The notes under the pieces are model-generated. The model was not told the DNA's origin, made no database searches, and saw only the letters and a list, made by a program, of their open reading frames with translations. A program made the translations under genes and the position numbers. Source: a virus. Taken from it: DNA of 64,000 nucleotides. Location of the stretch: positions 41,275 through 105,274 of IMG/VR virus record IMGVR_UViG_3300001450_010303, one strand, 5' to 3'. Shown here piece by piece: positions 505 to 56,172 of this stretch; positions within the stretch are counted from its first letter, which is position 1, and every line of letters starts with the position of its first letter.

Positions 505-511
505 GAAAATT

Positions 512-6634: not shown

Positions 6635-6635
6635 A

Positions 6636-11656: not shown

Positions 11657-11666
11657 GGAAATTAAA

Positions 11667-17457: not shown

Positions 17458-17474
17458 AACACCCTAAGTAAATT

Positions 17475-18638: not shown

Positions 18639-18659
18639 GCATATTAGTGAGAAAAAGTA

Positions 18660-25640: not shown

Positions 25641-25671
25641 TAGAATAATTATATAATAGGAGGGATATAAA

Positions 25672-26055: not shown

Positions 26056-27852
26056 ATGAGTTCGGATCAAAAAAAGATAGTTCCTATCAACTATACAAAT
26101 AGAGAATTTGAAGGGATAAGGCAAGATTTATTAGAATTGGCCGAGCGCCTATATCCCGATTCTTTTCAAGATTTTAGTGAAGCTTCCTTTGGATCGCTAA
26201 TGATAGATTCCGTAGCGTATGTCGGTGATCAGCTATCATTTTACATGGATTACAATATTAATGAATCCTTTTTGGATACGGCATATCAATATAACAATGT
26301 ATTAAGAATGGGCCGTACAATGGGGTACAAGCATACTGGACGCCCATCAACCTATGGTACCGCCGCCATCTTTGTAATAGTCCCAGCTAGCCCAACCGGT
26401 ATTGGTCCAGATACAAATTATATTCCGGTCCTAAAAAGAGGCACCAGATTTTCATCTGATAATAATCTTAACTTTGTATTATTAGAGAATATAGATTTTT
26501 CTGATCCTAAAAATCCAGTAGTGGTGGCCAAAGTTAATACCACAACCGGCGCCCCAACATCCTTCGCAATAAAATCATATGGTAATGTGGTATCAGGATA
26601 TTTTAGTCGCACTGATGTAGTTGTTGGCGCCTACGAAAGATTTAAGAGAATTAAACTTCCTATTCCTGAATTGGCAGAAATAATATCTGTCTTTGACTCC
26701 CAAGGAAATGAGTTTTACGAAGTAGATTATCTATCCCAAGACATGATATTTAAGGAAGTAACAAATAAAAATTATAAAAACGACAACGTTCCATCAATTT
26801 TAAAGCCATTTTTGGTTTCTAGAAAGTTTATAGTAGAGAGAGACAGAAATAATGCTTATTTACAATTTGGCTCAGGGCAAATAGGTGACAGTGAGATAGT
26901 CGCTGACCCACAAACCGTCGTTATGGAGATCTTCGGAAAAAACTATACATCTGATACAACTTTTGATCCTACAAGGTTATCAAAAAATAAAAGTTTAGGA
27001 ATAGTTCCTTCAAATACAACGCTATCAATCTCTTATCGTGTTACTAACCCTTCAAATTCAAATGTAGCTGTCGGATCATTAAACAGGGTTGGAAATGCTT
27101 TGTTCGATTTTGAAGATCGCTCGATTCTCAATAGCACCGAGATGGGAAATGTAATAGCCTCTCTTGAAATATCGAACGAAGAGCCAATTACAGGAGACGT
27201 TACAAACGCAAATACTTCTGAGATAAAAAGAAGAATATTTGATACCTTCCCAACACAAAACAGAGCGGTCACCCAAGCTGATTATGAAAATTTGAGTTAT
27301 AGAATGCCAGCGAAGTTTGGGTCTATAAAAAGAGTATCAGCGCAGAGAGATCCAGATTCCAAGAAAAGGAATCTCAATATGTATGTGATTTCAGAGGATA
27401 GCTTTGGAAAATTGGTCAGCACCAACAAAACAATTAAAAATAATTTAAAAACTTGGCTAAATCAGCATAGAATGATAAACGATACTTTAGATATAATCGA
27501 TCCCTATATTATTAATTATGGAATTGAGTTTATAATTAAACCATCCTCCGGCGCAGATAAATATATAACTTTAAATTCAGCGGTAGAAGCTTTAAAAGAA
27601 AGATTTAAGGCTCCAATGTATATTGGGGAACCAATCTATATAAGTGATATATATTCAACACTTAAAGAGTCTCCGGGAGTATTAGATGTTATAAAAGTCA
27701 GGCTCATAAATAAAACGGGCACGAACTATTCAAACGCTAATATAGATATAAATAAAAATCTTTCTCCCAACGGAGATTACTTGATAATACCAAAGAACGC
27801 AATCGCCGAAATGAAGTATCCAGAGAGTGATATCCAAGGAAAAATTAGATAA
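26056..27852 (+). CDS. Baseplate wedge protein, T4 gp6/baseplate-J-like
   Basis: YTNREFE.IRQDL, DFSEASFG..MID..AYVGD.LSFY.D...NESFLDTA, LQFG.G, QNRAVT..DYE. Confidence 0.85.
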   Translation: MSSDQKKIVPINYTNREFEGIRQDLLELAERLYPDSFQDFSEASFGSLMIDSVAYVGDQLSFYMDYNINESFLDTAYQYNNVLRMGRTMGYKHTGRPSTYGTAAIFVIVPASPTGIGPDTNYIPVLKRGTRFSSDNNLNFVLLENIDFSDPKNPVVVAKVNTTTGAPTSFAIKSYGNVVSGYFSRTDVVVGAYERFKRIKLPIPELAEIISVFDSQGNEFYEVDYLSQDMIFKEVTNKNYKNDNVPSILKPFLVSRKFIVERDRNNAYLQFGSGQIGDSEIVADPQTVVMEIFGKNYTSDTTFDPTRLSKNKSLGIVPSNTTLSISYRVTNPSNSNVAVGSLNRVGNALFDFEDRSILNSTEMGNVIASLEISNEEPITGDVTNANTSEIKRRIFDTFPTQNRAVTQADYENLSYRMPAKFGSIKRVSAQRDPDSKKRNLNMYVISEDSFGKLVSTNKTIKNNLKTWLNQHRMINDTLDIIDPYIINYGIEFIIKPSSGADKYITLNSAVEALKERFKAPMYIGEPIYISDIYSTLKESPGVLDVIKVRLINKTGTNYSNANIDINKNLSPNGDYLIIPKNAIAEMKYPESDIQGKIR

Positions 27853-29906
27853 TGGCTATTAAAAAATACTATGCGATTGCTGATAACACAATTACAAACG
27901 CTTACAAACTAAATTTATCTACGAGAGCAACCGGCGCCAACGCCGGCGCCGCAGATATTATGGAGATCTATTCAATTTATGGCCGCCAATCTACATCTTC
28001 GGCTGAGATCTCCAGAGCACTGATTAAGTTCCCTGTATCCGAGATAACATCAGATCGAAGCAATTCAAAGATTCCAGCATCCGGAAGTGTAAAATTCTAT
28101 TTAAAGCTCCATAATGCAGAACACTCTAAGACTGTACCAACGGGCAGTTTTACAATTGTGGCAGAACCAATCTCAGCGGATTGGGAAGAGGGCTACGGCC
28201 TGGATCTTGAGGCATACAAAGATATTACCAATGGGAATAAGGGCTCAAACTGGATCGCCAGAAAGGGCGAAGGCTTACAAGAAATCACTAAGGTGACTTT
28301 CACATCGACGAACAAAGCACATTACGCAGCCGGCGCCGGCGCAAACTACATAATAGCATATAATGGTAATAGGGCTTATAATCTGTGGTTCAACAACGGA
28401 TCTGATTCCGCACCATCAGCCGATGGCGCAGAAGTAGAAGTTGATATAAGTTCTGCTGGATCGAGCACTGCTGCAGTTGCTTCAGAATTTCAATCGACAA
28501 CTAATGCTTTGGCCGCGTTTGATTCAAACGTTGACCCGACAAATTCTGCAATAGTATATCTATCATCAAGCCTCGAAGGCGGCCACACAGACACATCAGT
28601 TGAGGGAACTATATCCGGTATAACTTTGGCAGTTCAGCAAGATGGAAACAACGAGATACCATGGACAAAAGTTGGTGGAGATTACATTACAACTGCAAAC
28701 GCTGCATATCCTTATCGCTGGTTTAGTCAAAGCTTCACTTCTGGGCTGGAAGACATAGAAATTGATATTACTCAAATGGTGGAGTTGTGGTCCGCTGGTA
28801 CGGTTGATAATTATGGACTTGGAGTGCATCTTTCTGGAGCCTTCGAACCATATTTCTCAACCGATTTTGATCCAACATACAGTGGATATATACAGAATAC
28901 AACCGGTTCAACGGTTTCATATTACACAAAGAGACTCTTTGCAAGGGGCTCACAATACTTTTATAAGCGCCCAGCCATCGAAGCTAGGTGGGATTCTAGC
29001 AAGAAAGACGATCGCGGCAATATATTTTACAGCAGTTCTCTAGCTGGCGTTAATGATAACCTGAATACTTTGTTTTTATACAATTACGTCCGCGGCCAAC
29101 TGGCTAATATCCCCTCAATTGGCACAGATGCAATATACGTGAGCTTTTATTCTGGGTCCGCGGACAACTCGGTACCTACTGGTAGCCTACAGACGTCTTC
29201 ATACACCCCAAACCCCCCGGGCGCCCACTCACGCGCAGCCATAGAACTTCCAACTACTCTCCCTTATCAATGGGTTGTCGACGATGATAGTCCAGACCCA
29301 CCAATCAGTACAAACCCGTATGTTGTGACCGGCGCTTGGGTATCAACCGGCATTTATAGTGCTTCTTTCGCCATAACAGGCGCCACAAACCCTCTTACGA
29401 AGATATTCGATGTCTGGCACGATGGAACAGGCAAGAACCACCCATGGGCAAGTGTGGAGTTCGCAACCTCCTCGTTCGAGCCACTCAACATGAGTGCTTC
29501 TTACTCTATGGCTGAGCCCACGTATCATCTTAAAATAACTAACCTTAAAGACAGTTATAGTTCAAGTGAAAATGCACGTTTTAACTTATTTATTAGAGAA
29601 AAGAATTGGAAACCAACAATTTATACAACTTCCAAAACAACCATAAAAAGTAAATCGATGTTGAGTGCTTCGTATAGAGTATTTAGAACGATCGATGCCC
29701 ACGAAGCTATCCCATATGGAACAGGAAGCAATCTACACACCATGATGTCTTATGATAATATGGGAAATTACTTCGATGTAGATATGAGTTTATTAGAGCC
29801 TGGGTATGCATATGCCTTTAAGTTCTCATTCTATGATAGTTCGTTGAGTAGCTGGATAGAACAACCACAGACCTTTAAATTTAGAGTAGAGAATTATGAG
29901 CATTAA
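27852..29906 (+). CDS. Putative baseplate/tail structural protein
   Basis: Coupled to gp6 by TAATG; beta-rich and Ser/Thr/Gly-rich; SRALIKF, WEEG.G, EIDITQMVE.W segments. Confidence 0.55.
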   Translation: MAIKKYYAIADNTITNAYKLNLSTRATGANAGAADIMEIYSIYGRQSTSSAEISRALIKFPVSEITSDRSNSKIPASGSVKFYLKLHNAEHSKTVPTGSFTIVAEPISADWEEGYGLDLEAYKDITNGNKGSNWIARKGEGLQEITKVTFTSTNKAHYAAGAGANYIIAYNGNRAYNLWFNNGSDSAPSADGAEVEVDISSAGSSTAAVASEFQSTTNALAAFDSNVDPTNSAIVYLSSSLEGGHTDTSVEGTISGITLAVQQDGNNEIPWTKVGGDYITTANAAYPYRWFSQSFTSGLEDIEIDITQMVELWSAGTVDNYGLGVHLSGAFEPYFSTDFDPTYSGYIQNTTGSTVSYYTKRLFARGSQYFYKRPAIEARWDSSKKDDRGNIFYSSSLAGVNDNLNTLFLYNYVRGQLANIPSIGTDAIYVSFYSGSADNSVPTGSLQTSSYTPNPPGAHSRAAIELPTTLPYQWVVDDDSPDPPISTNPYVVTGAWVSTGIYSASFAITGATNPLTKIFDVWHDGTGKNHPWASVEFATSSFEPLNMSASYSMAEPTYHLKITNLKDSYSSSENARFNLFIREKNWKPTIYTTSKTTIKSKSMLSASYRVFRTIDAHEAIPYGTGSNLHTMMSYDNMGNYFDVDMSLLEPGYAYAFKFSFYDSSLSSWIEQPQTFKFRVENYEH

Positions 29907-32900
29907 AAAGCTTTTTGGATCCACCGACAAAGCAAACAATTACCTAAGCGATACAGACCAGAAAGATGCCTTCGCAAGTGTAGAATCCAGCAGAAATTTA
30001 AAAGAAATTGAGGAAATCCAGGCTCATCATATACCTCATATAGACTATTCAAAGCCAGCTAATTTTGTGAAATACGGCTCGGCAAGGTTATACTATAAAA
30101 CCGCATTGAAAAGAATTTCCGACTATTATCCTTATGACGGTTCTAGTGCTGAGATTAACTCATTCTATAATAAATCTTTAGACATAGAGAAGTATATTCT
30201 CAATAATTTATATCCAAGAACAAATGGTTATGCTATATTTAGTGCCGATGGCTGGGGCAGTAAGGCTAGCAATTGGTCAGTTCATCGCCAAGACGGCTAT
30301 GGCATACCAGCAACCCCCGAAGCTATTATAGTTCAAGGTGGTCCAAATGCTGCGACCGGCGAACTAAAAGATCTGATACCCACATCAAAGAATAATAAGT
30401 ATCAATATTCTAACGTATATGACGAAGATATCTATCGAACTGCTGGTCTTCCAAGTGATTATGGTAAGGGAACTCGCGAATCGAACATGCGTGCCAACTT
30501 CGATGATGGTGTCACAGTAGAATTTTGGATGAAGACTGGTTCCTTTACAGATGGGACCGGCACAGAAACCTTGAAACAAGTAGTGTTCGATTTATGGAAT
30601 CGTAAAGATCCGAACACCGGCGCCGGCTTTGAAAAAGAATATGGAAGAATCACTGTAGAATTGACCGGCGTTGTACAGAACGATATAGACTACTCGGACC
30701 CCAATAGTTATTGGTCGGACTCGCCATTCTTGGTCACAGTACAATCTGGCTCTGTAACCGGCTCCTACCAACAAACCATTGGTAAAAACATAACAACCAG
30801 CTCAATGGGTGAGTGGAACCACTATGCGATAACGCTGTTTAACTCCGGATCTGGATTCATGGCAGATTTCCACGTCAATGGGCATCTCAGTGAAAGAAAG
30901 ACATTAAACGCCAGTCAAACATTGAACGAAATTGCCCCGAAGAATATGGTAGCGCGTATAGGATCACTGCTTACCGCCAGTTGTGGCGCCCTCGAAAATC
31001 CCGGACCCATAGCAAGATTTGGTTCCATTGATGGCGGCAAGCTAAACGGCTCGATAGATGAATTCAGATACTGGAAATCTGCAAGAACTCACGAAGAAAT
31101 TGGAAAGAATTGGTTTGCTCAAGTCGCCGGCGGCGCTAATACTGATATATCTAATGCAGAACTTGGAATATATTTCAAATTCAACGAAGGTATTACCGGG
31201 GATGCTTCTCTCGACAACACTGTTTTGGATTATGCCGGTAGAATAAGCAACGGAACGTGGTATGGATATACATCAAATTCAAGAAACACCGGTTCTGCGA
31301 TTATTGAAGCCGCGGCCGCAACAAAAGAATATGAGGATCCCATCATCCGGCCCGAACACCCGGATTATATTGCACTTGAATCAGAGTTATCAATAAGTGG
31401 TGAAAACTTTGATATAAACAACAATAACTCAATGTTGAGCTTGCTTCCCGGGTGGATTATTGAAGAAGAAGAAAATAACAAGGATTCTGACTTACAAAAC
31501 ATATGTCATATTGTTGGTGCTTACTTTGATAAGTTGCATATGCAAATCTCTGAAATTCCCAAGTTTCATTATGCGACATACCCAAGTGCTTCCCAGAAGC
31601 CAGCACCATTCGCAGAACATTTTGCACAGTCTTTCGGACTATACACGCCCGAATTGTTTATTGATTCAACAGTTCTGGAGAAATTCGCCGATAGGGATGA
31701 AGAACAGCTATTCGAAGCGAGCCTACAAGACACAAAAAATCTAATTTACACCAATCTCTATAATAATATAGCTAATATCTTTAAAAGCAAGGGTACCGAA
31801 AAGGCTATAAAAAACGTGTTTAGATGCATGGGTATAGATGAAAAGCTGATAAAACTAGTAGTTAATTCTAATAATCAAGACATCTCTCTTAGAGACAACT
31901 ATCAGCAGTCCTTGATCAATAAAAACTGTTTAAATTTCAACAACAGCCTAAATTCAACAGCGGTTGTATATCAAGCAATTGATTCAAATAATGCAAACAG
32001 TTTAGGATACTTAACAAATCCAACAGAGAGTTCAGCGCCATCCTATGGTTGCACGGTAGAGAGTAACATAGTCCTTCCATACTACACACGCGGTATTGGG
32101 GACATGGATAGAGATTACGATACTGTATCTTTGTTCGGAATGTATACAGTTGATACTACAAGCGCTGATTCTAAAACAGGAGCAGACCCATCCTTCATTG
32201 GAGGTTATGGTATAGATTCTACTGGCGGCGACGATGCAAACTTTCAAGTCTATGCAATTAAGGAATCAAAGGATTCCAGAAATGTATATTTTAAACTTTC
32301 ATCATCGAATAAGCCAATACCGTTTCCAATCGATGTCGATAATGTCCTAACAAGTTCGCTGTTTTTGAATGCATATGATAATCAAGAGTGGAACATTTCT
32401 GTAAGGCTTAAGCCCCTCAAAGGTCAGCTAACAAACTTAGTTTATGGAGCCGGCGGTACCGGGTATGAAGTAATATTTTCCGGATATCAAACTCAACTCG
32501 GGGAAGTTATAAACAGCTTTAGTGTATCATCGTCAGTTTCACAGACCACCGGTTCGTTGTTTATGCTAGCAGGCAAAAGAATATATGCCGGCGCTAATAG
32601 AGAAAACCTAACCGGCCGTGTCATCGACAAAAGTGATATACTTGTCAATAATATTAGGTATTGGTCAAAATATTTAGAAGACAGTGATCTCATACAACAT
32701 ACACACGATATTGAAAACAGAGGCATTTCAGGTTCTTATAGACCACTATCTCCCATAGACACGGGAAGTGTCGATATTATTAACTCCGAGACATTAGCCC
32801 TAGAGTGGAACTTTACTGATCTAACCTCAAGCCGCGCAGATGGAACTATAGGGTATATCAAAGATTATAGCTCTGGTTCAACTGATGTTCGTAACCCACA

Positions 32901-40353: not shown

Positions 40354-40355
40354 CA

Positions 40356-45436: not shown

Positions 45437-45484
45437 GAATATATGATATTAGATACAGATACTATTTAGTTATAGGTATAAAGA

Positions 45485-47118: not shown

Positions 47119-47119
47119 T

Positions 47120-50100
47120 ATGCCTGACCCCGAACTTTTCTTTCCGGCAGGCTCGGTTGCCCCGTCCGGACCACCACTGTACTCAACAGCGTATGAAATA
47201 GACGATTCGCATGTATATACTTTTGTTGGACATGGCAATGTGGAGGGCGACGGAAACTATTTAAGAGAAGAAATAGGGAATATTTGGTCTATCATCGACG
47301 GGAAAGAAGAAAACCAGTCACTCAACACTCGGGCACTTCCGTTATATAAGACTGAAAACTTAAACGGTATTGAAGTATTTCGTGCCAATAGTCGTTCAAG
47401 ATATATTAAAGCGGTGGAGATTAATCCTTGTACGGTTAGAGTTTTGGAACCCACGCTAGCGGTACCAAATTATTTAATACCCGTTAGATTGTATTCCGAA
47501 CTAAACTTACCTGGCGGCGACCTATTTTGGAATACTTTATTTAGAGGAGGCCAAATCGGAGAGGGCAATTATACATCTCTGCTTCCTTCTGATGCTGTTT
47601 ATTACAACACAATGTTTAAATATTCAATTCCATACACGATTCTGGAAATGAAAAAAACTGGGATAAGTTCAACCACCGCAGAACCAACAAATGTAGGATA
47701 TGAATATAATGCATATCTTCACAGATATGAATCATCAGTAAGCAATAAAAAATCAGAACTTCTTATTCCAAATTATTATATGTTTAAATACATAAAAGGG
47801 GCCAATGCTTCATATAAACAATATGCCACGTTAGAAAAAAAGGTTAGCTTAGATATTTTAAGAAATGATTTATTTAAAAACAGAACTCGTTCATTCTCTT
47901 ATTTAGAAAAAGATTTTTCAGGCTATAGTTTTTCTCCCACACTCGAAGATGAAGTTACTAATTCACAGAAAAACATACTGTTCGATGATAAATACTATGA
48001 GAAAGAAAGGTATGACACAACTCAGCCAATGCCACAGAACCTATTCCCATACGGAGTTAGAATCTCTATGCCGAATGATTCTGGAATAATAGAGAAAACT
48101 TCCAAGAGTAAGTATCGTATTAGAGATTCTATAATGAAGAACGATTTTTCGTCAAAGTTTTTGGAAATATTAAAAGATGTATATGACGAGAGTTTCCCGG
48201 ATATAGCTCCGGGCTACTTAGAATATACTGTACAAAAATCCTCATTAGCTAAATCATCGACGCCACGTACGGGCCCACAGAAGGTTGAGACCAACACAGT
48301 TAATAAGACACCTTATAAAACAATAGATTTTCTGGAGTTTTTAACACTTATATATAACAACTATTCTGCGTCTCTCAATGACGATTATTCCTTTGTGGGA
48401 AACGCCCGGGCTGCAGCCGCCGAAAGAAGCACGACATACTCGGCCACCGGATTTGACAGATATTTCAACAATAAGAATGTGATGGCAGTTCTAAATGATA
48501 CAATCAAATATTCTAAAACCATTCTAAATGCAGATGATCTAAAATACATGAACTTACAAAATGTGATTAATATACAGGAGAATCCTGTAGAGACTTTAGC
48601 TTATAGAATTGAAAAAGTCGCCGGCCAACAATCGGAGAATTCAACAAATAAAACAGTTCTACAAAACTTCTGGATGTTCAATTCTTCCCATATGAAAAAC
48701 TTGGATTTATTTGACACTCAGGTCAAATATGGCGAGAAATACACATACAATTGTTATGCATATGTTGTGGTTCCCTCCTATAGATATAAATATACGAATC
48801 TGAGGCTAACTAAACAAATAGCTAGAATAGATACAGATGGCGATGGAATCCCGGATCAATACTGCATGCAGTTTTATGATCCAGCAACAAATAACTACGC
48901 AGAACAACTATTCTATGATGGTGCGGGGATGGTTTCATCCGCGCCTGGTTCATCGATTGGGGCTGTAGATTTTGAATCCGGTCCAACTGGAATGATAACT
49001 TCACCCGAGTCTGCAATGCCAGTTAGTGATGGTGAGGGGGTCGACCCGTGGCCTCCGACCACGGTTGAACCGATGAGCTACCAGGGCCAAGACAAAGACG
49101 AAGAAAAAAAGAGGAAGCTAGAAGATACTCTTCAGGGTTCCTCCGATGGCCTGGGCGGCGGAGGCCACCATGCCGGCAGCGGACAGAATTGGAACCACGG
49201 AAGTTCGGGCGATCCGACTCATGATAACCCCCCCGCCGGCGGCCCGGGCTATGTTGAGGGCGCCGGAGGCGGCTATGCCAGTCCCACCACCGGGTGGCGG
49301 TTCGGCGCGATGGAGGATGAGGAAGGAGAAAGCATCGGCGGCGAAGGCATGGATGCAGATGTATTCGCAGAGTTAATGGATGTCATCAATAATCTCAATA
49401 CGGGGCTGAGTTCGGAAGACTTCGCCTCCTTTATGCAAGGCGCGACCTTTGGCGGCGGCGGCGGCGACGAAGATGGCCCGGGCCACGATTCAGGCGGCTC
49501 CGGCGACGGCGGCGGCAGCGAAAGCGAGTGGTACGAAGCCCCCGGGGCCGATGAAAACCTCGACGGCGTTCCAGATGACGAGCAAACACCTGCGCCGTAC
49601 GTCCGCAAGAACACCGGCGCCACATGGGGCATCGGCATCGCCGGCCTCCCGGGCAGCCACTTCAACGATGCGGCCACTTCAACGAGCGTCCCCTATAGTT
49701 TTACAGTTCCTGGTACCAACTGGACAGTCCCCGGCAATGGCGTCGCCGCCGTAGTCAAGGGGTCTTGGTTGAAAGCCGGAGACTGGACCGACGCCGACCA
49801 GGCCGCATACGATAAACGTTGGTGGGCTGCCCGGCAGGCCAATACCCCCGGCAACAAAGTCGAAGTAGCAAGTCCTTTCACGCAAGGAGGAGAATCCGGT
49901 GGCGGCTCAAGAAGCATTGTTAGAAGCACAACCACTCGACCAATAAGAGACCCGTATGGTAGCAGCCCTTACTCTAACGTCCAAGCCATGTCCAGTACTG
50001 GATATTCAGCCCCCGCGGGCACTACCGGCGGTAGCCCATATCCAGGGTCATCCATGCCCGGCGGCGGCCCCGCATTCTATGAGACCCCGGGCGCACCTCC

Positions 50101-51607
50101 TGATTACACTGCACCCGACCCTAGCACGTTTGGCCCGGGCACGACTTCCGGCGGCACAACCGGCACAATAACAGTGCCTTACTCCCCAGTTATGCCAGGA
50201 TTTACAGCAATCACAACCTGTAAAACATCAATATTGGCTACAAGAAATGCATATGCTACAAGCCAGCAAGACATGAGTGATAGTCCGCACGTGGCAGACT
50301 TCTACTTCCATGTAGAGCCGTGTTTTAAGGTTATAGAGATCCCCATGTTTTCAAAAACACAACAAGTTTTAGATCATCCCGGTAATGGAGCATCGATATA
50401 TCCATTTCAATACATAGATGATTCGCAGAGAGTAGGATTTGAAACATCATATGAGAGTCATGTGCCAAAAGAATTCCCGACAGTTATAACAGCCGAAGAT
50501 CAGGTTAAGAAAGACGACTACTTGTTCGCAAATAATTTGCTTTTAAAAGATATCATAAACGCAAAAACGATCTCGCGAGCAAGATATGTAGAAGTCTTTA
50601 GAACATCTGTCAAACCAACAAGTTACGGAGATTTTGAAGGAAATCTCTTAAGCACTCTCGATCTTAGAATAGAAGATACAGAGTACGTCTTTGCTGACAC
50701 AGTTTATGAATCGGAAATTGACACTAACAAAAAATATTACTATCTATTTAGATTCCTGAACGAACATATGATGATAAGCCACCCATCTGAAATAATGGAA
50801 TGTGAATTAGTTAATGATGGAGGATACAAATATGCTATTTTTGGCGTACTATATGAGCAGCATCTCCGCACCGCACCACCAAAGAACACAACAATCTCCA
50901 TGAAGAAACTTCTGCAGATACAACCTAATATGAGCCAAATTACACTTGACACAACCGACGTTGATTTTAATAAAAAAGCAGCCACTCAAATAAACAAAGT
51001 CAATGTTGGGGTTGCTAAAGAATTGATTTGGGGAAAACGATTTAAAATTAGAATGATTTCTAAGAAAACCGGAAAGAAAGTAGATCTGAATATTAAATTT
51101 AAAATGCAAGAAGACCCTGAAGCGCCCGTCAAGTCCGCCCCACCCGGAATGTCTGTGGCGCCAGAGCCATCGCCCGGAGCGCGCTGGGAGCACGAGACTG
51201 AGGTTACAGTGACAATAGAGGAAGAGGAAGAGTGGTGGGATGATTTGGGAGATACAGACGCTTACAGAGAAGGCACAGATGTACCAGAAGAAGGTTATGG
51301 TGGCGACGGCGCGCTATACCCACCGGTCACGATGGAGCCAGACCCGGTCTTGCCATGGCCAGATACCGACACAGATTATGGATTTTATGAAACCGGCCCC
51401 CCCGAAGGAATGTCCGGACCCTCGACTTATGATGGTTCAGGCGATGGCCCTTCCTTTTATGAAGCCGGCCCTTACACCGCCCCCTCGACTTATGATGGTT
51501 CAAGCGATGGCCCTTCCTTTTATGAAGTCGGCCCTTACACCGGCCCCGACGATACCTTCACAGGCGCCGAGATGACATATTACGAGTGGGATCATGACTG
51601 GGAATAA
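47120..51607 (+). CDS. 1495-aa putative virion protein with low-complexity insertion and repeat tail
   Basis: FN3-like segments (AYRIEK...LFDTQVKYGEKYTY; EVFR...NKKYYYLFRF) flank a Gly/Pro/Asp-rich insert. Confidence 0.55.
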   Translation: MPDPELFFPAGSVAPSGPPLYSTAYEIDDSHVYTFVGHGNVEGDGNYLREEIGNIWSIIDGKEENQSLNTRALPLYKTENLNGIEVFRANSRSRYIKAVEINPCTVRVLEPTLAVPNYLIPVRLYSELNLPGGDLFWNTLFRGGQIGEGNYTSLLPSDAVYYNTMFKYSIPYTILEMKKTGISSTTAEPTNVGYEYNAYLHRYESSVSNKKSELLIPNYYMFKYIKGANASYKQYATLEKKVSLDILRNDLFKNRTRSFSYLEKDFSGYSFSPTLEDEVTNSQKNILFDDKYYEKERYDTTQPMPQNLFPYGVRISMPNDSGIIEKTSKSKYRIRDSIMKNDFSSKFLEILKDVYDESFPDIAPGYLEYTVQKSSLAKSSTPRTGPQKVETNTVNKTPYKTIDFLEFLTLIYNNYSASLNDDYSFVGNARAAAAERSTTYSATGFDRYFNNKNVMAVLNDTIKYSKTILNADDLKYMNLQNVINIQENPVETLAYRIEKVAGQQSENSTNKTVLQNFWMFNSSHMKNLDLFDTQVKYGEKYTYNCYAYVVVPSYRYKYTNLRLTKQIARIDTDGDGIPDQYCMQFYDPATNNYAEQLFYDGAGMVSSAPGSSIGAVDFESGPTGMITSPESAMPVSDGEGVDPWPPTTVEPMSYQGQDKDEEKKRKLEDTLQGSSDGLGGGGHHAGSGQNWNHGSSGDPTHDNPPAGGPGYVEGAGGGYASPTTGWRFGAMEDEEGESIGGEGMDADVFAELMDVINNLNTGLSSEDFASFMQGATFGGGGGDEDGPGHDSGGSGDGGGSESEWYEAPGADENLDGVPDDEQTPAPYVRKNTGATWGIGIAGLPGSHFNDAATSTSVPYSFTVPGTNWTVPGNGVAAVVKGSWLKAGDWTDADQAAYDKRWWAARQANTPGNKVEVASPFTQGGESGGGSRSIVRSTTTRPIRDPYGSSPYSNVQAMSSTGYSAPAGTTGGSPYPGSSMPGGGPAFYETPGAPPDYTAPDPSTFGPGTTSGGTTGTITVPYSPVMPGFTAITTCKTSILATRNAYATSQQDMSDSPHVADFYFHVEPCFKVIEIPMFSKTQQVLDHPGNGASIYPFQYIDDSQRVGFETSYESHVPKEFPTVITAEDQVKKDDYLFANNLLLKDIINAKTISRARYVEVFRTSVKPTSYGDFEGNLLSTLDLRIEDTEYVFADTVYESEIDTNKKYYYLFRFLNEHMMISHPSEIMECELVNDGGYKYAIFGVLYEQHLRTAPPKNTTISMKKLLQIQPNMSQITLDTTDVDFNKKAATQINKVNVGVAKELIWGKRFKIRMISKKTGKKVDLNIKFKMQEDPEAPVKSAPPGMSVAPEPSPGARWEHETEVTVTIEEEEEWWDDLGDTDAYREGTDVPEEGYGGDGALYPPVTMEPDPVLPWPDTDTDYGFYETGPPEGMSGPSTYDGSGDGPSFYEAGPYTAPSTYDGSSDGPSFYEVGPYTGPDDTFTGAEMTYYEWDHDWE
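51419..51544 (+). repeat. 63-nt in-frame tandem repeat, 2 copies (PSTYDGS.DGPSFYE.GPYT.)
   Basis: CCCTCGACTTATGATGGTTCA...CCTTACACCG starts at 51419 and again at 51482, with about 3 mismatches. Confidence 0.9.
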
Positions 51608-51633
51608 AAAAATAGTTAAACACGGATATTATT

Positions 51634-52644
51634 ATGGCTTTTAAAAAGACAAGCGGCACGATTGTTATTGACGCAACTTTAACCGAATTAGGTCGAGAAA
51701 AAATGGCTAAAGGAGAATTTTTAATTTCGAAATTCGCTTTAGGTGACGATGAAATTGACTATAGCCTATTTGATAAAATTATAAAACATGATGAGGACGG
51801 GATCCAAGCCACCAAGATAGCGGCAATGTTGGAAGCATATTCAAATAAAAATTCTAACATTACGTACGGTCCAACCACACATATAAGCCAAAATATACTG
51901 TATCTCCCAGAGCTTAAGGTTAATAATAGATTAAGTTTTTGTCCGGATATCTATCATGATGTTCATTATCTATCAGTTAATGATGAAACTTCCGAAAAGA
52001 TAAATCTGATCTTCGCAAATTCGTTTAAATACTTGGAATCAAGTACAACAGAAAAATCTAAACTAGTAATTGAGAGCGGCTTAAACACACCTGAAATTCG
52101 CCCAGAACTTAAAAATAGAGATAAGTATCTATTAAATTTAGGTTTGTTGGACCAATACTCATATGTCATGTGTGATGCTAGATTTATAGATTCTATGATG
52201 GCATCAGATAAAAGCAGTAAATTTCAAAATTTTCCAAACGGAGATTATAAAATTAATTTCGAGACACTGACGGCTGCCGCACCCACCTCACACAATAATG
52301 GTTTCAGATTTTATAGAACATATTTATGTAATATGATCCCTAATTTAATGACAGATTATGAATCTTTCACTTCCCCAGGCCTTGAATTTTCGAATATTCT
52401 CGGCCCGCGCGGCACCGTCATGGCCACAAACTATTCTGTCGTGTCAAGCCTTAGAACAAATTCCGATGGCGAAAGAGACAAAAGATGGACTAAATACGGC
52501 GAAATCGATCAAGTATTATTTAGCGAAGAATACGTAACACAATACAAGTTTGATTATATAGAAACAACTATATACATAGTAGGCGCAATCTCACATGCGT
52601 CAATTCAGGTACCTGTGAGATTATTAAGATATTCAGGAACTTAG
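51634..52644 (+). CDS. Putative tail protein (paralog of 52723)
   Basis: IDATLTELGREKMAKG.F.I.KFALGDDEI.Y; C-terminal GPRG...FDYIETTIYI.G. Confidence 0.6.
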   Translation: MAFKKTSGTIVIDATLTELGREKMAKGEFLISKFALGDDEIDYSLFDKIIKHDEDGIQATKIAAMLEAYSNKNSNITYGPTTHISQNILYLPELKVNNRLSFCPDIYHDVHYLSVNDETSEKINLIFANSFKYLESSTTEKSKLVIESGLNTPEIRPELKNRDKYLLNLGLLDQYSYVMCDARFIDSMMASDKSSKFQNFPNGDYKINFETLTAAAPTSHNNGFRFYRTYLCNMIPNLMTDYESFTSPGLEFSNILGPRGTVMATNYSVVSSLRTNSDGERDKRWTKYGEIDQVLFSEEYVTQYKFDYIETTIYIVGAISHASIQVPVRLLRYSGT

Positions 52645-52722
52645 TATTTAAAAAGTTTTATTATAGTGCTATAATCTATTTAATAACAAAAACACTAATT
52701 ATTATAACAAAGAGGTAAATAA

Positions 52723-53715
52723 ATGGCTTTCTTAGACAATTCCGGAGACATCATTCTCGACGCCGTGCTCACAGAGATCGGCAGAAGAAAAATGGCTAAA
52801 GGAAACTTTTCAATTAAAATGTTTGCTCTTGGCGACGATGAAATCAACTATAAGTTGTATAACAAAAACCACCCGTCAGGTTCAGCTTACTATGATCTGG
52901 AGATATTACAAACTCCGATACTGGAGGCCTTCACAGAGACAAATGCTGGAATTAATTATGGCCTTTTGTCCCACGGTAACACCAACTTGATGTATATGCC
53001 GGTTATGAAAACAAACGAAAAAGTGCCAAACGCGGCTATCAAGAGTGAATCCGGTTTTTACTACTTGTCTGTTGCTGATGGAGTCACTGCAGACGCCATC
53101 ATTGCTGCCCTGGGAGGCTCCTGCGAAAACGCAGGTCAGTATGTACTTCAATCCGGAGCCCACACTGGAACAAAGATTATCTCCGAGATAGGATTAGATA
53201 CAAAAGAAATATCGGCCACAACGCAGAACAGAAATAATTATCTGGATTCTAACAACCTAACAGACACCGGAATATCTGTTTCGATTGACACGAGATTCTT
53301 ATCGAGCGTACTAGGGGCCGCTAGGGGAAGTATATTTAGTAATGGTGGCACTGAGGGCCGCGAAAAAATTCAAATTAACATGTCCCGCACCGCTGCCGGC
53401 CGAACGGATCGCAATCTTCCAAACCATAGGATAGCCACAGTGAAAGCAATTAGAAATCAAGTTGTGTTTAGACAGAACGACAACCGAGCAGACACGGCAA
53501 CATCAGTGATGAATGGCCCCCGCGCCAGCGCGACAGCATTAAACTTTGATGCTAAGAGCCTCACCAACGACGATTTTAGTCGACATGGTAAAACTTCACA
53601 AGACCTGTTTGGAGATGGTAACACATATGATTATATCGATACAACAGTGTATGTTTCCGGAGTGTCCTCGGGCGCAACCCAACAAATTAGTTTAAGGTTA
53701 ATTAAAAAAGCATAA
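52723..53715 (+). CDS. Putative tail protein (paralog of 51634)
   Basis: LDAVLTEIGRRKMAKG.F.I.MFALGDDEINY; GPRA...YDYIDTTVYV.G; GAGGT SD. Confidence 0.6.
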   Translation: MAFLDNSGDIILDAVLTEIGRRKMAKGNFSIKMFALGDDEINYKLYNKNHPSGSAYYDLEILQTPILEAFTETNAGINYGLLSHGNTNLMYMPVMKTNEKVPNAAIKSESGFYYLSVADGVTADAIIAALGGSCENAGQYVLQSGAHTGTKIISEIGLDTKEISATTQNRNNYLDSNNLTDTGISVSIDTRFLSSVLGAARGSIFSNGGTEGREKIQINMSRTAAGRTDRNLPNHRIATVKAIRNQVVFRQNDNRADTATSVMNGPRASATALNFDAKSLTNDDFSRHGKTSQDLFGDGNTYDYIDTTVYVSGVSSGATQQISLRLIKKA

Positions 53716-53736
53716 TATGATAAATGGAGAAAAGAA

Positions 53737-54849
53737 ATGCCAATAAAAAGTTTTGAACCCCTAAATCCTAATACGGATATAACCACCACAAGAACCTTCT
53801 TGCATGAGGTGGTGCCGGTAACAGGTGCTATTGTTAGTGGAACATATGGTGTATTTACGACAGAAAACAATATTAAAAATTATACTCATGGCCAGTTTCA
53901 ATCTGTATATGACTATCCATATTTAAGTTCCTCAGCAAACCATATATTTGATATAACAATGGGCTACGACGAGAGTTCTGCGCTATCGCATTCTGCCTCA
54001 ACGCAAAACAGCAAAAAGATCAATATGTATAATCAATTCTCGCAGTTGTTATTGGGCTACACGGGTTCTGATAATACGGTCAGAGTGTTCGAAAGTGATC
54101 TGGTCTTAGACCTTACGGGTTCAATGAAAGAGGTGTATTTTGTTAACTTTTCTCGATTGCTCACCAAGGATCAAATCAAGAAAGGATCCGTAGAGATTAA
54201 ACTTGGCCGCGGCGCGATGCGCGGCACTGACGGTAATGCCGGCTGCGCATTTGTTGATACAGGCTCTAACTCGAAAGTAATAACCTTGACAGACGCCTCA
54301 GCTTCGGTGGATGATACCGGAACGTTTAACACTCTTGGGGGAGACTATGGTGTTTTGTATGACGCCGGCGGCGCTGGTGCGACAGACACAGGCATTGGAA
54401 AAGGAATCATATTCTACCAAGCCGGCGTCATGGTTTTGACGGCATCGATTTTCTCTTCTTCGAATGGGAATTTAGATGATTACTGGAAATACGAAGGCAA
54501 TTCATGGAGTGTAACACAATCCATGATGACCGGAGCAATCAGCGCTTCATGTGACGCTCTCAGGCAACGAATTCAAAGCGTCTCGTTTAATAACACAACC
54601 GAGATTAATTCAACAATCTACTTCTGCCGCGTACCACACAATAAATTCAACTACAGTACAAACCCAACGTATATAACCGGAAGCAAGTTGAGAGTTAAAA
54701 ACACTTCGGGAGATCCATCAGTCTCATATATAACAACAGTTGGTCTTTATAGCTCGAATAACGAGCTGTTAGCAGTAGCCAAACTTTCAGAGCCACTTAA
54801 GAAGACGCCGAGTAACGAGCTAACTCTTCGTGTTAGATTGGACTATTGA
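53737..54849 (+). CDS. Putative tail/tail-fibre-associated protein
   Basis: C-terminal NYSTNPT...YITTVGLY...ELLAVAKLSEPLKK...RVRLDY, reminiscent of phage tail-collar/fibre attachment domains; paralog of 54874. Confidence 0.55.
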   Translation: MPIKSFEPLNPNTDITTTRTFLHEVVPVTGAIVSGTYGVFTTENNIKNYTHGQFQSVYDYPYLSSSANHIFDITMGYDESSALSHSASTQNSKKINMYNQFSQLLLGYTGSDNTVRVFESDLVLDLTGSMKEVYFVNFSRLLTKDQIKKGSVEIKLGRGAMRGTDGNAGCAFVDTGSNSKVITLTDASASVDDTGTFNTLGGDYGVLYDAGGAGATDTGIGKGIIFYQAGVMVLTASIFSSSNGNLDDYWKYEGNSWSVTQSMMTGAISASCDALRQRIQSVSFNNTTEINSTIYFCRVPHNKFNYSTNPTYITGSKLRVKNTSGDPSVSYITTVGLYSSNNELLAVAKLSEPLKKTPSNELTLRVRLDY

Positions 54850-54873
54850 TTCCTTCTAAAAAGAGAAAATCAT

Positions 54874-56172
54874 ATGTTTAGAAAATTTGGCCCGAACGAT
54901 ATCATTCGAAATGCTTTGGTGGCTCACCCTAAGACCACATTTTTTATCTATGAATCGCGCGTGTATTATAACGATAAGCCAGTGCAATCTGGATCGTTTG
55001 GGCCCGAACGCTTAAGCTATTATGCCGTCGCTGGCGATACTAACGTTCAAATTGGTGTTGTAGCACCACTTGGAAATGTTAGTTTATACGAATATAACAT
55101 CGATCGTATTAAATCAATATCGCCCTCGGCACCGACGCTTAATCAGACCATATATCCGTATTTGACAAAAGATGGTTCAAAAGCTAGCTTCAAGACAGTA
55201 ATCAAGGCATCATCAATATATAACAATGAATTTGATTTTGGCGATACATTAGCTGGTATATATCCGATGACCGCCTCTATACGTAGAGATTATATAACGA
55301 CCCCACACGACAGCACCACAGGAGTTTATAACCAATATTTCGTGGCTTTAAAAAACAAATTAAATTTATATGGAGTTAGATCGCGACACTATAAAGTAAC
55401 TTCATCTTACGGAGATAAGAGCCAACAAACATTAAATCTTATTCATATTCCTTCTATCTTTTACGGCCAACGAATAAGGCCCGGAAGCTTATCGCTGAAG
55501 TGGTATTTTTCTGGTTCTCTTATAGGAGAGCTAAGAGACACTAAACAGAACGGAGAGCTAATTCAAGTTTCTGGTACCTACGATGGTGTCGGCGATGTTA
55601 ATGCGGCAAACATCGGAAATGTAGCAGGTGTGGCTTTATATGATGAGGGGCTGTTGCTGATGACAGGTTCGTGGGATCTTAGCAACGCCAATGTACATCT
55701 GAGAGCCGGAGATACAGCATCAAAGCCACAGTGGATTTATTGGGGTGCTGGTGCTCATGATGGAGTTAATGAGGGCACAGTAAATAGTGGTGGTGGAAGT
55801 ATTACATTTACGAATGCTGCGTTTGAATTATCGTTCGAAGGAACAACAAAAACACAAGTACTTACAATGTATGCTCATGCTGATAAAGGCAAAGTTAATT
55901 ACTCCAATAACCCAACGTTTATAGAATACGGTCAAGAACAACTACAACAAACTTCTTCACACGTATATGAGGAGAACTCAAAGAGGTTAATCAAGAATAC
56001 AGTTAGTTCTAGCTACAGTAGTTATAGCGCCTCTTTTAAGAGACAAGTGTATATATCCAAAGTAGCGGTATATGACGCTGCTAAAAATTTAATAGGTGTT
56101 GCTACATTATCCAGTCCGGTCCTTAAAGAAGAAGAGCAAGACTATACATTTAAAATAAAATTGGATCTGTAA
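54874..56172 (+). CDS. Putative tail/tail-fibre-associated protein
   Basis: NYSNNPT...YISKVAVYD..KNLIGVATLSSPVLK...KIKLDL; paralog of 53737. Confidence 0.55.
   Translation: MFRKFGPNDIIRNALVAHPKTTFFIYESRVYYNDKPVQSGSFGPERLSYYAVAGDTNVQIGVVAPLGNVSLYEYNIDRIKSISPSAPTLNQTIYPYLTKDGSKASFKTVIKASSIYNNEFDFGDTLAGIYPMTASIRRDYITTPHDSTTGVYNQYFVALKNKLNLYGVRSRHYKVTSSYGDKSQQTLNLIHIPSIFYGQRIRPGSLSLKWYFSGSLIGELRDTKQNGELIQVSGTYDGVGDVNAANIGNVAGVALYDEGLLLMTGSWDLSNANVHLRAGDTASKPQWIYWGAGAHDGVNEGTVNSGGGSITFTNAAFELSFEGTTKTQVLTMYAHADKGKVNYSNNPTFIEYGQEQLQQTSSHVYEENSKRLIKNTVSSSYSSYSASFKRQVYISKVAVYDAAKNLIGVATLSSPVLKEEEQDYTFKIKLDL

Follow-up and report, generated by a model that had tools for sequence, protein, structure and literature searches.

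Why should unrelated tail proteins of one phage be filled with the same short, ordered tripeptide? The question is raised by a 64,000-nucleotide stretch of viral DNA (positions 41,275 to 105,274 of IMG/VR record IMGVR_UViG_3300001450_010303), referred to here as the window, which carries a tail module together with part of a glycan-synthesis cluster. A preliminary description of this DNA had counted by hand the tripeptide [S/T]-[G/A/S]-S in several tail proteins and had proposed that it is a selected acceptor motif for the neighbouring phage glycosyltransferases (GTs). We examined the motif statistically in the window, in homologs and in cultured relatives, and compared its distribution with that of the GT genes. 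The features discussed are collected in Table 1.

Table 1. Features of the window and of the adjoining part of the glycan cluster, with motif counts given as observed versus expected.
Feature	Position	Strand	Length (aa)	Motifs (z)	Remarks
Glycan-synthesis cluster, part in window	440..13567	+			Part of a soluble cluster of ~20 kb (Pfam, PHROG)
GT genes of this part	3149-4120 and 7646-8434	+			In glycan cluster (Pfam/PHROG)
Two tandem core GT4 genes	L082:15910-17244, L082:17220-18503				Upstream of window; continuation of cluster
GT2 gene	L083:496-2154				Upstream of window; continuation of cluster
gp25-like	25672-26040	+		0 vs 0.2	Inner baseplate wedge subunit (PHROG 261/43)
gp6-like	26056-27852	+		0 vs 1.7	Inner baseplate wedge subunit (PHROG 219/6)
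ORF 27852	27852..29906	+	684	15 vs 5.2 (4.5)	Distal baseplate/fibre slot; enriched
ORF 29896	29896..40353	+	3485	44 vs 14.1 (8.2)	Giant fibre-like protein; enriched throughout
ORF 40356	40356..41891	+	511	4 vs 1.2 (2.6)	Tail-module protein; moderately enriched
Other tail-module ORFs	41879..53715	+	1185, 193, 350, 1495, 336, 330		Motif lacking or avoided
ORF 53737	53737..54849	+	370	10 vs 2.4 (5.1)	Tail/baseplate-associated; very large marine family; enriched
ORF 54874	54874..56172	+	432	9 vs 1.9 (5.1)	Paralog of ORF 53737; enriched

An ordered tripeptide is overrepresented in outer tail proteins

Expected counts were obtained from 1000 composition-preserving shuffles of each protein. Pooled over four ORFs, [ST]-[GAS]-S was observed 78 times against 23.4 expected (z=12), and in the outer-tail ORFs of the window and the outward-facing tail proteins of cultured relatives the ordered Ser/Thr-small-Ser tripeptide lies ~3-5x above expectation. 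The excess therefore survives the comparison with shuffles that the preliminary description had proposed, and it withstands the stricter control of a mirror motif as well. The earlier hand counts (15, 10 and 9, "dozens" in the giant protein, where there are 44, and ~1 in SbcCD) were reproduced exactly, and every quoted example, including HSAS, YTGS, QSGSVTGS, VSGSANSSTGS and LSASLSG, is present; ORF 40356 was absent from that list. SbcCD (1052 aa) has 1 motif against 1.0 expected.

Each position of the motif shows its own tolerance. In the enriched proteins [ST][GAS]T occurs 16 times against 15.8 expected, so that Thr is not accepted at position 3; variants with T, D or P in the middle show no excess, and [GA][GAS]S is depleted. 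The mirror motif S[GAS]T is not enriched (11 vs 10.1 expected), and T[GAS]S outnumbers it 38:11 where the baseline is ~1:1; the excess is thus not a matter of local Ser-richness. Motifs with a hydrophobic residue on both flanks are strongly favoured (24 vs 2.3 expected, z=15.6), in keeping with the hydrophobic context noticed earlier. Instances of the motif use all synonymous codons and only the coding frame is enriched, which rules out a word selected at the level of DNA. Known sequons behaved differently from the tripeptide: D-[ST]-[AILVMT], the sequon of Bacteroidota, was found 19 times against 19.3 expected in the five enriched proteins, and N-x-S/T showed no enrichment in the same test.

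Enrichment is confined to certain ORFs of the tail module. The gp25-like and gp6-like genes, which anchor the identity of this module, lack the motif and are directly followed by ORF 27852; their orthologs in Microcystis phage Mel-JY01, Flavobacterium phage immuto and LR756508.1 are flat as well. Taken together, the ORFs at 41879..53715 and 16375-26040 contain 10 motifs against 21.5 expected (O/E 0.47), and their ratio of T-x-S to S-x-T is 2:15, suggestive of avoidance; in relatives the direction is kept but is weaker (77:121 pooled). A gene for an FKBP-type prolyl isomerase lies directly after the tail module.

Unrelated families carry the motif and conserve it as a class

The five enriched ORFs represent at least four unrelated families, namely 27852, 29896, 40356 and the 53737/54874 pair. 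Repeated domains or common homology can be ruled out as the source of the excess: the pair are the sole paralogs (hhalign 97.8%, E=1e-12), with two motif sites that align between them at 24% identity, and ORFs 40356 and 27852 have in common a 57-aa segment only. The 3485-aa product of ORF 29896 contains one Laminin_G_3 (ConA-like lectin) domain at residues 1812-1986 (Pfam PF13385), has no internal repeats and shows no similarity to the other enriched proteins. Its sites run along the whole length with a median spacing of 45 aa, at 1-9 sites per 500 aa, which agrees with the earlier remark that the motif is dispersed rather than concentrated in low-complexity tracts.

We next consider homologs at 45-70% identity, ~120 for each of three families. 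The 119 homologs of ORF 27852 average 14.5 motifs against 3.6 expected, a 4.0-fold excess with a lowest single ratio of 2.5, and 120 homologs each of ORFs 53737 and 54874 show 4.4-fold and 4.8-fold excesses. Relatives of ORF 29896 are enriched 2.5-fold, and homologs of ORF 40356 in 80 related loci 3.1-3.4-fold. Individual sites, by contrast with the class, are only partly fixed: in the ORF 53737 family, which numbers >7,900 homologs, about half of the instances fall in columns conserved in >=80% of sequences and the rest turn over. Conserved columns drift inside the motif class, for example TAS 71, TSS 22, SSS 13, SAS 10 and TGS 5, or SGS, SSS and SAS, and the ORF 27852 family shows such within-class drift too; sites are also gained and lost, at times wholesale (TGS to NNQ). 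The motif Ser is better conserved than other Ser in the ORF 54874 family (0.72 vs 0.41, p=0.008), and not significantly so in the ORF 53737 family (p=0.25). At 21 of 23 variable sites the three motif positions co-occur more often than under independence, with equality at the other 2, a comparison that is inflated by shared ancestry and carries little weight.

ORFs 53737 and 54874 gave nothing usable in Foldseek-PDB, VIA-wide, PDB profile, PHROGs, Pfam or ESM Atlas searches. In AF2 models of only pLDDT 64 and 68, the secondary structure places T109 and T235 of ORF 53737, and T133, T176, S213 and T264 of ORF 54874, at strand ends or hairpin turns, and other sites lie in low-confidence coil. Several conserved sites fall within low-pLDDT but invariant segments, which may be subunit interfaces. 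The idea that the two are the major capsid and vertex proteins, suggested by the paralogous pairing, the size of the family and weak matches in VIA to head proteins of P1 and S6 (Z 6.2 over 90 aa), is ruled out by the position of the pair, which in immuto is flanked by baseplate and fibre genes, and by the separate T4-like capsid proteins of RM378 (gp23-like) and Mel-JY01. The label of tail proteins given to them in the preliminary description is thus the appropriate one.

Enrichment follows the expected exterior of the tail in relatives

The clade to which this phage belongs is widespread in aquatic habitats, consists of large myoviruses and spans abundant uncultured marine phages, a Microcystis cyanophage and Baltic Flavobacterium phages. 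In Mel-JY01 and immuto the orthologs of the window's enriched proteins also show the excess (for example, 6 vs 1.3 expected for the Mel-JY01 ortholog of ORF 27852 and 18 vs 5.6 for that of ORF 29896), and so do their spikes (60 motifs in immuto CDS 169) and tail sheath; further structural proteins are enriched in relatives too. The two sheath proteins are especially informative, in that 20 of their 21 motif sites lie in a variable insert, residues 102-479 in Mel-JY01 (11 vs 2.5 and 9 vs 3.4 expected), and not in the conserved core (0 vs 0.8 and 1 vs 1.1). Tube, hub, tape measure, gp25/gp6-like wedge, portal-slot protein, protease and terminase of the relatives are flat, head-assembly and replication proteins are without excess, the tail tube of Mel-JY01 and immuto has 0 sites, and the capsid protein is marginal (5 vs 2.0). 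Enrichment is therefore limited to proteins expected on the tail exterior, that is, sheath inserts, distal baseplate, fibres and spikes. Together with the position of the sheath sites in the variable insert, this restriction indirectly favours surface exposure of the motif, as far as can be judged from sequence.

The structural proteins of T4, including its fibres, sheath and baseplate, contain 38 motifs against 39.3 expected (0.97); the excess is lineage-specific. Within the lineage its strength varies: in RM378, which has a homolog of the 444-aa GT, enrichment is limited to two proteins and does not extend to the flat 53737-family protein, and in LR756508.1, where a GT is likewise present, enrichment is weak.

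A core GT4 pair of a soluble glycan cluster is co-inherited with the motif-bearing family

At least five GTs are recognized in the genome by Pfam and PHROG. In addition to its two GTs, the window part of the cluster encodes three epimerase/dehydratases including a GDP-mannose 4,6-dehydratase, a B12/radical-SAM enzyme, a split TPP enzyme, a UDP-glucose dehydrogenase-like protein, a methyltransferase, a DegT-family enzyme and a PfkB kinase. The GTs scanned match only GT4, GT2 and GT1-like models of Pfam and NCBIfam, and several ORFs of the cluster have no family match. On the 105 kb contig, which is about half of the genome, no ORF has three or more TM-like segments, and Pfam scans of the contig yielded no match to a flippase, polymerase, ABC exporter or polyprenyl-phosphate priming transferase. 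A soluble glycan pathway of ~20 kb without export machinery would need a cytoplasmic acceptor. In Mel-JY01 and RM378 the glycan genes are interleaved with structural genes.

The GT4 pair is present in 16 of 17 long metagenomic relatives and in all 3 complete genomes, the gene content downstream of it varies, and both paralogs retain E-x7-E in the genome under study, immuto and Mel-JY01, whereas in RM378 the E-x7-E of the second GT is degenerate. In a set of 50,697 phage records, 7 have the core 444-aa GT, and the same 7, with no others, have a 53737-family protein. By gene content, then, the co-inheritance of motif-bearing family and GT pair is complete, though confounded with phylogeny; the two are inseparable because no GT-less relative was found among the 50,697 records or 17 long contigs. 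The preliminary description had asked whether enrichment tracks the GT cluster in related phages. The motif-bearing family occurs together with the GT pair; the strength of enrichment does not follow it, GT presence failing to predict how strongly RM378 and LR756508.1 are enriched.

Discussion

Our results lead us to propose that [S/T]-[G/A/S]-S is a selected acceptor tag read by soluble phage GTs that O-glycosylate the outer tail proteins, a proposal that we judge to stand at even chances. It builds on what is established here: an excess that is order-specific, independent of family, conserved as a class and restricted to the outer tail, and the co-inheritance of the GT pair. Of the original claim of an acceptor motif for phage GTs, the part that these patterns support well is selection for a motif read in trans; a GT as the reader and a glycan as the product, along with the hydroxyl that accepts it and the particular GT responsible, are what we infer. 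The motif would usually sit where a hydrophobic beta-strand enters a short turn, and soluble phage-encoded GTs would read it in the cytoplasm, O-glycosylating distal baseplate, fibres, spikes and surface domains of the sheath before or during assembly. The likeliest priming enzymes would be the two tandem, clade-core GT4 enzymes, which appear catalytically intact from their E-x7-E motif, and the variable downstream nucleotide-sugar and tailoring cassette would set which glycan is made, so that the coat of the tail would differ from phage to phage. GT4 enzymes make non-protein glycoconjugates as well, and the acceptor of the phage GTs might be DNA or some other soluble molecule. Extended to the whole clade, the proposal is that these large aquatic myoviruses encode a tail glycan coat whose Phi-[S/T]-[G/A/S]-S-Phi sequon is kept in at least four families, purged from the inner tail, read by the GT4 pair and diversified by the cassette; this fuller version we hold tentatively, at slightly less than an even chance.

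That the excess merely reflects fibre proteins rich in Ser, Gly and Thr, or local patches of low complexity in them, is extremely improbable. The enriched proteins are indeed Ser-rich (10-12% in the window and up to 18% in relatives), but the shuffles preserve composition and still give z values up to 12, [ST][GAS]T is flat, and the mirror motif, which has the same composition and the same sensitivity to patchiness, is not in excess. Moreover, T4 gp35, gp48, gp54 and wac, like ORFs 16375, 17475 and 46066 of the window, are equally Ser-rich yet flat, and the mirror-motif and T4 controls effectively refute this explanation. A more serious contender, although still an unlikely one, is that Phi-[ST]-[GAS]-S-Phi forms a tight beta-turn or strand-end cap in the beta-rich surface domains from which this clade builds its outer tail, selected for folding or assembly, with nothing attached. 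The conserved hydrophobic flanks and the sites common to paralogs of 24% identity fit such a turn as they fit glycosylation, and the positional conservation of about half of the sites, the modelled hairpin turns and strand ends, the possible subunit interfaces and the independence of enrichment strength from GT presence in RM378 and LR756508.1 point the same way. However, a structural motif would need an independent origin in each of at least four unrelated families as well as in sheath inserts and spikes, while other tail proteins of this virion, though also beta-rich, lack or avoid it and T4 fibres, sheath and baseplate proteins lack it. The strict Ser at position 3, the free choice of S/T at position 1 and G/A/S at position 2, and the wholesale loss and gain of sites also fit a recognition class better than packing.

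The motif might also be read in trans for some other purpose, either another modification of Ser/Thr (phosphorylation, acylation or phosphoglycerol) or docking of a chaperone or decoration protein, with the GTs directed at DNA or a host-surface glycan. We regard this as improbable without dismissing it, given that the evidence for recognition in trans is neutral on chemistry, that the link to the GTs consists in co-inheritance only, that RM378 and LR756508.1 are weakly enriched despite having a GT, and that a prolyl isomerase gene follows the tail module. On the other hand, the annotated genes include no enzyme that would modify proteins, such as a protein kinase or an acyltransferase, and phylogenetic profiling for an enzyme common to the motif-positive phages and absent from RM378 returned only PhoH, an exonuclease, a 234-aa ORF, the gp6-like protein and primase, a list that holds no alternative enzyme but carries little information. 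The need of the soluble pathway for a cytoplasmic acceptor and the interleaving of glycan and structural genes in Mel-JY01 and RM378 also argue against it. Even with nothing attached, it would still have to be explained why unrelated proteins have been selected for an order-specific tripeptide that their neighbours avoid.

If glycosylation is correct, the motif would be the first O-glycosylation sequon of the dispersed kind to be described in a phage, and it would provide a rule by which glycosites could be predicted from sequence; our literature search found no published sequon and no glycosylated virions of marine phages or cyanophages. Aquatic phages of a group that is both large and ecologically abundant would then glycosylate their tail surface at predictable sites, the scale of the group being apparent from the >7,900 marine-metagenome homologs of a single marker protein. 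Such a coat could change how the phage adsorbs, which hosts it infects, how readily it sticks to particles or mucus, and whether host defences or grazers recognise it. Variation in the sugar cassette would add a further dimension to phage diversity, as a phage counterpart of O-antigen variation. Because three relatives are in culture and the sequon names exact residues, the claim can be tested directly.

Relation to known glycosylation systems

Several known systems share features with the proposed one. General O-glycosylation in Bacteroidota uses the sequon D-[S/T]-[A/I/L/V/M/T] and is extracytoplasmic, with a lipid-linked glycan. Like the tripeptide, that sequon is a short three-residue motif dispersed over many folded proteins, and one cultured relative infects a Flavobacterium; unlike it, the Bacteroidota sequon is flat here and the contig has no membrane component. 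The latter also separates the phage cluster from Und-PP-linked O-antigen and capsule clusters, since a flippase, polymerase, exporter and priming transferase are all missing from the contig, about half of the genome. GtfA/GtfB and SdgA/SdgB are GT4 O-glycosyltransferases of serine-rich-repeat and Ser-Asp-repeat adhesins; GtfA and GtfB are paralogs encoded in tandem, and their substrates include SAS-like tripeptides. The phage enzymes are predicted to be similarly GT4-fold, soluble, nucleotide-sugar-dependent and Ser-directed. GtfB, however, is non-catalytic, whereas both phage paralogs keep E-x7-E, and the adhesin substrates are long low-complexity repeats, unlike the dispersed, repeat-free phage sites. 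For the phage GTs, no GtfA/GtfB model of NCBIfam was listed at E<=0.1, and the SdgA/SdgB models scored 19.7 and 13.8 bits against a cutoff of 800.

A parallel in acceptor geometry may be offered by Aah and TibC, bacterial autotransporter heptosyltransferases that O-glycosylate AIDA-I and TibA in the cytoplasm (PMC3835316, citing Charbonneau et al. 2012). The Aah acceptor is described there as a strand-loop-strand element whose loop begins with the Ser/Thr (PMC3835316). The context of hydrophobic strand, [S/T]-small-Ser and hydrophobic strand seen here would match this geometry, the confidently modelled sites lying at strand-to-loop junctions or hairpin turns in models of modest pLDDT. Aah transfers heptose and follows no sequence consensus, whereas the phage motif is a selected sequence class with virion proteins as targets. 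The phage enzymes are of the GT4 family with no detected similarity to Aah/TibC, and no heptosyltransferase model of Pfam or NCBIfam was listed for them, several cluster ORFs being unmatched.

In the literature that we found, the phages with documented virion glycosylation are to date mycobacteriophages, in which the terminal tails of capsid and tube proteins carry the glycan. There, phage-encoded GTs O-glycosylate the virion (Freeman et al. 2023, as summarised in PMC12619734), and the same summary places the glycans at the C-termini of capsid and tail-tube subunits. As in that system, the phage GTs discussed here are proposed to coat the phage's own structural proteins. They differ in clade, in hosts (marine bacteria, cyanobacteria and flavobacteria) and in GT set, a core GT4 pair with a variable cassette, and the tube is without enrichment and the capsid marginal; the candidate sites are instead a tripeptide dispersed through folded sheath inserts, distal baseplate, fibres and spikes.

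Gene layout

The 105,274 bp contig belongs to a single phage, and the window is its right-hand 64 kb. Complete related contigs measure 191-203 kb (one with direct terminal repeats), indicating that the contig covers about half a genome; no head, neck, portal, terminase, sheath or tube genes were found on this half. A 113-aa ORF whose PHROG match is annotated 'protease' (E=2e-29) directly follows the tail module (56172-56513), and a gene for an FKBP-type peptidyl-prolyl isomerase also lies just past it (57125-57691).

Principal features of the window
Feature	Position	Strand	Source
Nucleotide-sugar and glycosyltransferase cluster, large	440-13567	+	Pfam
Tail and baseplate module	roughly 16375-56172	+	PHROGs
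gp25-like wedge subunit	25672	+	PHROGs
gp6-like wedge subunit	26056	+	PHROGs
Replication genes (primase, SbcCD)	within window	+	

A tripeptide excess in specific tail proteins

The preliminary description held that the tripeptide [ST]-[GAS]-S saturates several tail proteins. Its hand counts were reproduced exactly, every example that it quoted was located in the sequences, and the excess over composition-preserving shuffles survived in all four proteins. ORF 40356 is also enriched (4 against 1.2 expected; its homologs 3.1-3.4-fold), and no further ORF in the 105 kb contig stood out comparably.

Occurrences of [ST]-[GAS]-S against shuffled sequences
Protein	Observed	Expected	z
ORF 27852	15	5.2	4.5
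ORF 29896	44	14.1	8.2
ORF 53737	10	2.4	5.1
ORF 54874	9	1.9	5.1
SbcCD	1	1.0	

Pooled over the four proteins, the motif occurs 78 times against 23.4 (z=12), while the Thr-ending form [ST][GAS]T shows no excess (16 against 15.8), a middle T, D or P brings none and [GA][GAS]S is depleted. Its reported hydrophobic setting and dispersal were likewise evident: 24 pooled instances are flanked by hydrophobic residues on both sides against 2.3 expected (z=15.6), and the 44 sites of the 3485-aa protein are distributed over its full length. A nucleotide word could be ruled out, since all synonymous codons occur at each position and the excess is confined to the coding frame (for example, 15 instances versus 0-3 in the other five frames). 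Ser-rich patches could also be ruled out as the cause, since T[GAS]S and S[GAS]T stand at 38:11 in the five enriched proteins, with the mirror form at expectation (11 against 10.1). Baselines for this ratio lie near 1:1 (T4, 12:17; unassigned ORFs, 204:192), and 28 structural proteins of T4, Ser-rich fibres included, carry the motif 38 times against 39.3. The remaining tail-module ORFs of the window genome are in fact depleted (10 against 21.5; T-x-S to S-x-T, 2:15), a tendency that is weaker in relatives and keeps its direction (77:121).

The excess is not tied to a single fold. Of the enriched ORFs, 53737 and 54874 form a paralogous pair (hhalign 97.8%, E=1e-12), for which fold searches gave no assignment, and no relationship to them was detected for ORFs 27852, 29896 or 40356, among which the sole similarity is a 57-aa segment common to 27852 and 40356. 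No internal repeats were found in ORF 29896.

Conservation in homologs

The families of ORFs 53737, 54874 and 27852 are very large in marine metagenomes (>7,900, >1,700 and >3,400 matches, respectively). In each family about 120 homologs, 45-70% identical, were counted, giving excesses of 4.4-, 4.8- and 4.0-fold; no 27852 homolog fell below 2.5-fold, and the Thr-ending control was again flat. About half of the motif instances occupy columns that 80% or more of the sequences conserve; the others lie at sites held by 10-80%, some common in relatives yet absent from this phage. Within conserved columns the tripeptide varies freely inside its class and seldom exits it (for example, SGS 48/SSS 38/SAS 26, or TAS 71/TSS 22/SSS 13/SAS 10/TGS 5); where a site is lost, the whole tripeptide has often been replaced (TGS to NNQ) or only the position-3 Ser has become Ala. 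At the conserved site of residue 503 in 27852 homologs we observed SAS 40/SCS 38/TAS 29, so position 2 may accept Cys as well. In the 54874 family, conservation is higher for motif serines than for other serines (0.72 vs 0.41, p=0.008); in the 53737 family the difference was not significant (p=0.25).

Across 80 related IMG/VR loci the excess was family-specific: orthologs of 53737, 54874, 29896 and 40356 were enriched, those of 47120, 52723 and 51634 were near 1, those of 41879 were about 0.45, and those of SbcCD, ORF 56407 and primase were 0.34-0.70. Homologs of SbcCD (60305-63463) from 53 related loci carried 22 motifs against 64.1, or 0.34 of expectation, and those of ORF 56407 stood at 0.42. 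Because non-structural proteins are not depleted genome-wide (29 against 25.5), these low values may be a property of coiled coils rather than avoidance.

Cultured relatives and the distribution of the motif over the tail

A weak tblastn match led to Microcystis phage Mel-JY01 (190 kb), and then to Flavobacterium phage vB_FspM_immuto (160 kb), Rhodothermus phage RM378 (130 kb) and an uncultured 484 kb phage (LR756508.1). Their common gene order runs gp25-like, gp6-like, large proteins, paralog pair, fibres and spikes, primase. Since RM378 and Mel-JY01 carry separate T4-like capsid proteins, the 53737 family is not the capsid and belongs to the tail or baseplate.

Mel-JY01 and immuto share only 25-31% identity with the window, and in them the orthologs of its enriched proteins are enriched too (z 2.9-6.8). 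The excess extends to annotated tail spikes (immuto CDS 169, 60 against 20.6, z=9.4), a Mel-JY01 'structural protein' (24 against 7.4), immuto CDS 214 (17 against 3.0) and the tail sheath of each phage (11 against 3.1; 10 against 3.7). It is missing from the tail tube, hub, tape measure, gp25- and gp6-like wedge, portal-slot protein, prohead protease and terminase of these phages, and for the capsid protein it is marginal (5 against 2.0). In the two sheaths, 20 of the 21 sites fall within a poorly conserved middle insert (11 against 2.5 and 9 against 3.4 after correction for local composition), and the conserved N-terminal segment with the Phage_sheath_1/1C core holds 0 against 0.8 and 1 against 1.1. 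In sheath structures the conserved core forms the inner layer facing the tube and inserted domains point outward, so this confinement serves as an indirect test of exposure.

Several architectural features of these proteins were also observed. In the 53737 family (53737-56172), the last ~240 aa (ending ...TIRVRLDY or ...TFKIKLDI) form a portable C-terminal module, found behind differing N-terminal parts in five consecutive Mel-JY01 proteins of 352-954 aa (record stretch L084:12295-21241), suggestive of a shared anchoring domain for diverse tail appendages. Adjacent ORFs 51634-52644 and 52723-53715 have a conserved N-terminal segment in common (about 40-100 aa) and differing remainders; this putative adaptor domain also starts single ORFs located shortly before the paralog pair in all four relatives. 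In RM378 the only clearly enriched proteins are the adjacent p077 and p078 (483 and 423 aa; record 64825-67547, L116:4826-7548), with 8 against 1.6 and 6 against 1.2 and a T-x-S to S-x-T ratio of 10:2; neither hypothetical protein had a Pfam match.

Glycosyltransferases and the sugar cluster

Upstream, the glycan cluster reaches beyond the window to a GT2 and to two tandem glycosyltransferases (GTs) of family GT4, weakly paralogous and 444 and 427 aa long. Of 17 long related contigs, 16 carry this GT4 pair, the sole exception being only 48% complete; it also occurs in 3 of 3 complete genomes at 43-71% identity, a conservation equal to that of structural proteins. By contrast, the GT2 varies between relatives, as does the number of epimerase copies (1-7), and these variable genes are invariably found immediately downstream of the GT4 pair. 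In a set of 50,697 phage records, exactly 7 carry the 444-aa GT, and the same 7 carry a 53737-family protein. The GT4 E-x7-E signature is intact in both GTs of the window genome, immuto and Mel-JY01; the second RM378 ORF has lost the second Glu (ESWDYLLHN). That ORF (record 10586-11890), which follows the homolog of the 444-aa GT, aligns with the 427-aa GT over just its first ~57 residues, and RM378, the lineage with this degenerate ORF, is also the one of least motif enrichment. In Mel-JY01 the ortholog of the 444-aa GT is in two ORFs (198 and 313 aa; record 83423-84929, L085/L086), both annotated 'putative glycosyltransferases', which could stem from a frameshift or a sequencing error or else be a true split.

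On the contig, about half a genome, we found no ORF with at least three TM-like segments and no match to flippase, polymerase, exporter or priming-transferase families; judged from this gene content, the pathway looks soluble and would need a cytoplasmic acceptor. Glycan genes are interspersed among structural genes in Mel-JY01, where an FkbM/GT fusion and a cytidylyltransferase adjoin the structural protein richest in the motif, and in RM378, where a UDP-galactopyranose mutase-like gene lies inside the tail module.

Proposed mechanism and alternatives

The signal is strong in statistical and evolutionary terms, and an artefact is very improbable. The best-supported model, to which we give an even chance, is that soluble GTs of the phage, with the core GT4 pair as the likeliest candidates, O-glycosylate outer tail proteins at the motif in the cytoplasm, with sugars supplied and tailored by the variable cassette. 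The recognised element would be a short turn with S/T first, after a hydrophobic strand, and Ser two residues on. By analogy with the bacterial heptosyltransferase Aah, whose reported acceptor is a strand-loop-strand element with Ser/Thr at the loop start (PMC3835316), the acceptor would be position 1, which takes S or T freely, with the invariant Ser as a recognition element; the reverse arrangement, or two acceptors for two GTs, is also possible. Some sites lie at hairpins and strand ends in AF2 models (pLDDT 64 and 68), and two sites align between paralogs 53737 and 54874. These placements and the conserved hydrophobic flanks would fit equally well with a purely structural turn motif, an explanation that we consider rather unlikely.

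The preliminary description took the motif to be an acceptor for the neighbouring GTs and proposed asking whether enrichment tracks them. Here GT presence does not predict strength: RM378 and the 484 kb phage carry the GT, yet the 53737-family protein of RM378 shows no excess (1 against 1.1) and enrichment in the 484 kb phage is only weak. No relative among those examined lacks GTs, so co-inheritance of motif and GTs is inseparable from common descent. That the motif is read in trans for some other purpose is less probable still than a structural turn. With three cultured relatives, the glycosylation model is directly testable.

Comparison with known systems

Literature searches found no published description of this motif. 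By the features tested, the system does not belong with GtfA/GtfB, SdgA/B or Bacteroidota O-glycosylation. Membership in the Aah/TibC system is not indicated either: the GTs scanned matched GT4, GT2 and GT1-like models, and no heptosyltransferase model was among the matches listed. The known precedent for phage virion glycosylation is a mycobacteriophage system that, according to a published summary (PMC12619734), places glycans on the C-termini of capsid and tube subunits; the present case departs from it in the type of site, the proteins targeted, the enzymes and the phage clade.
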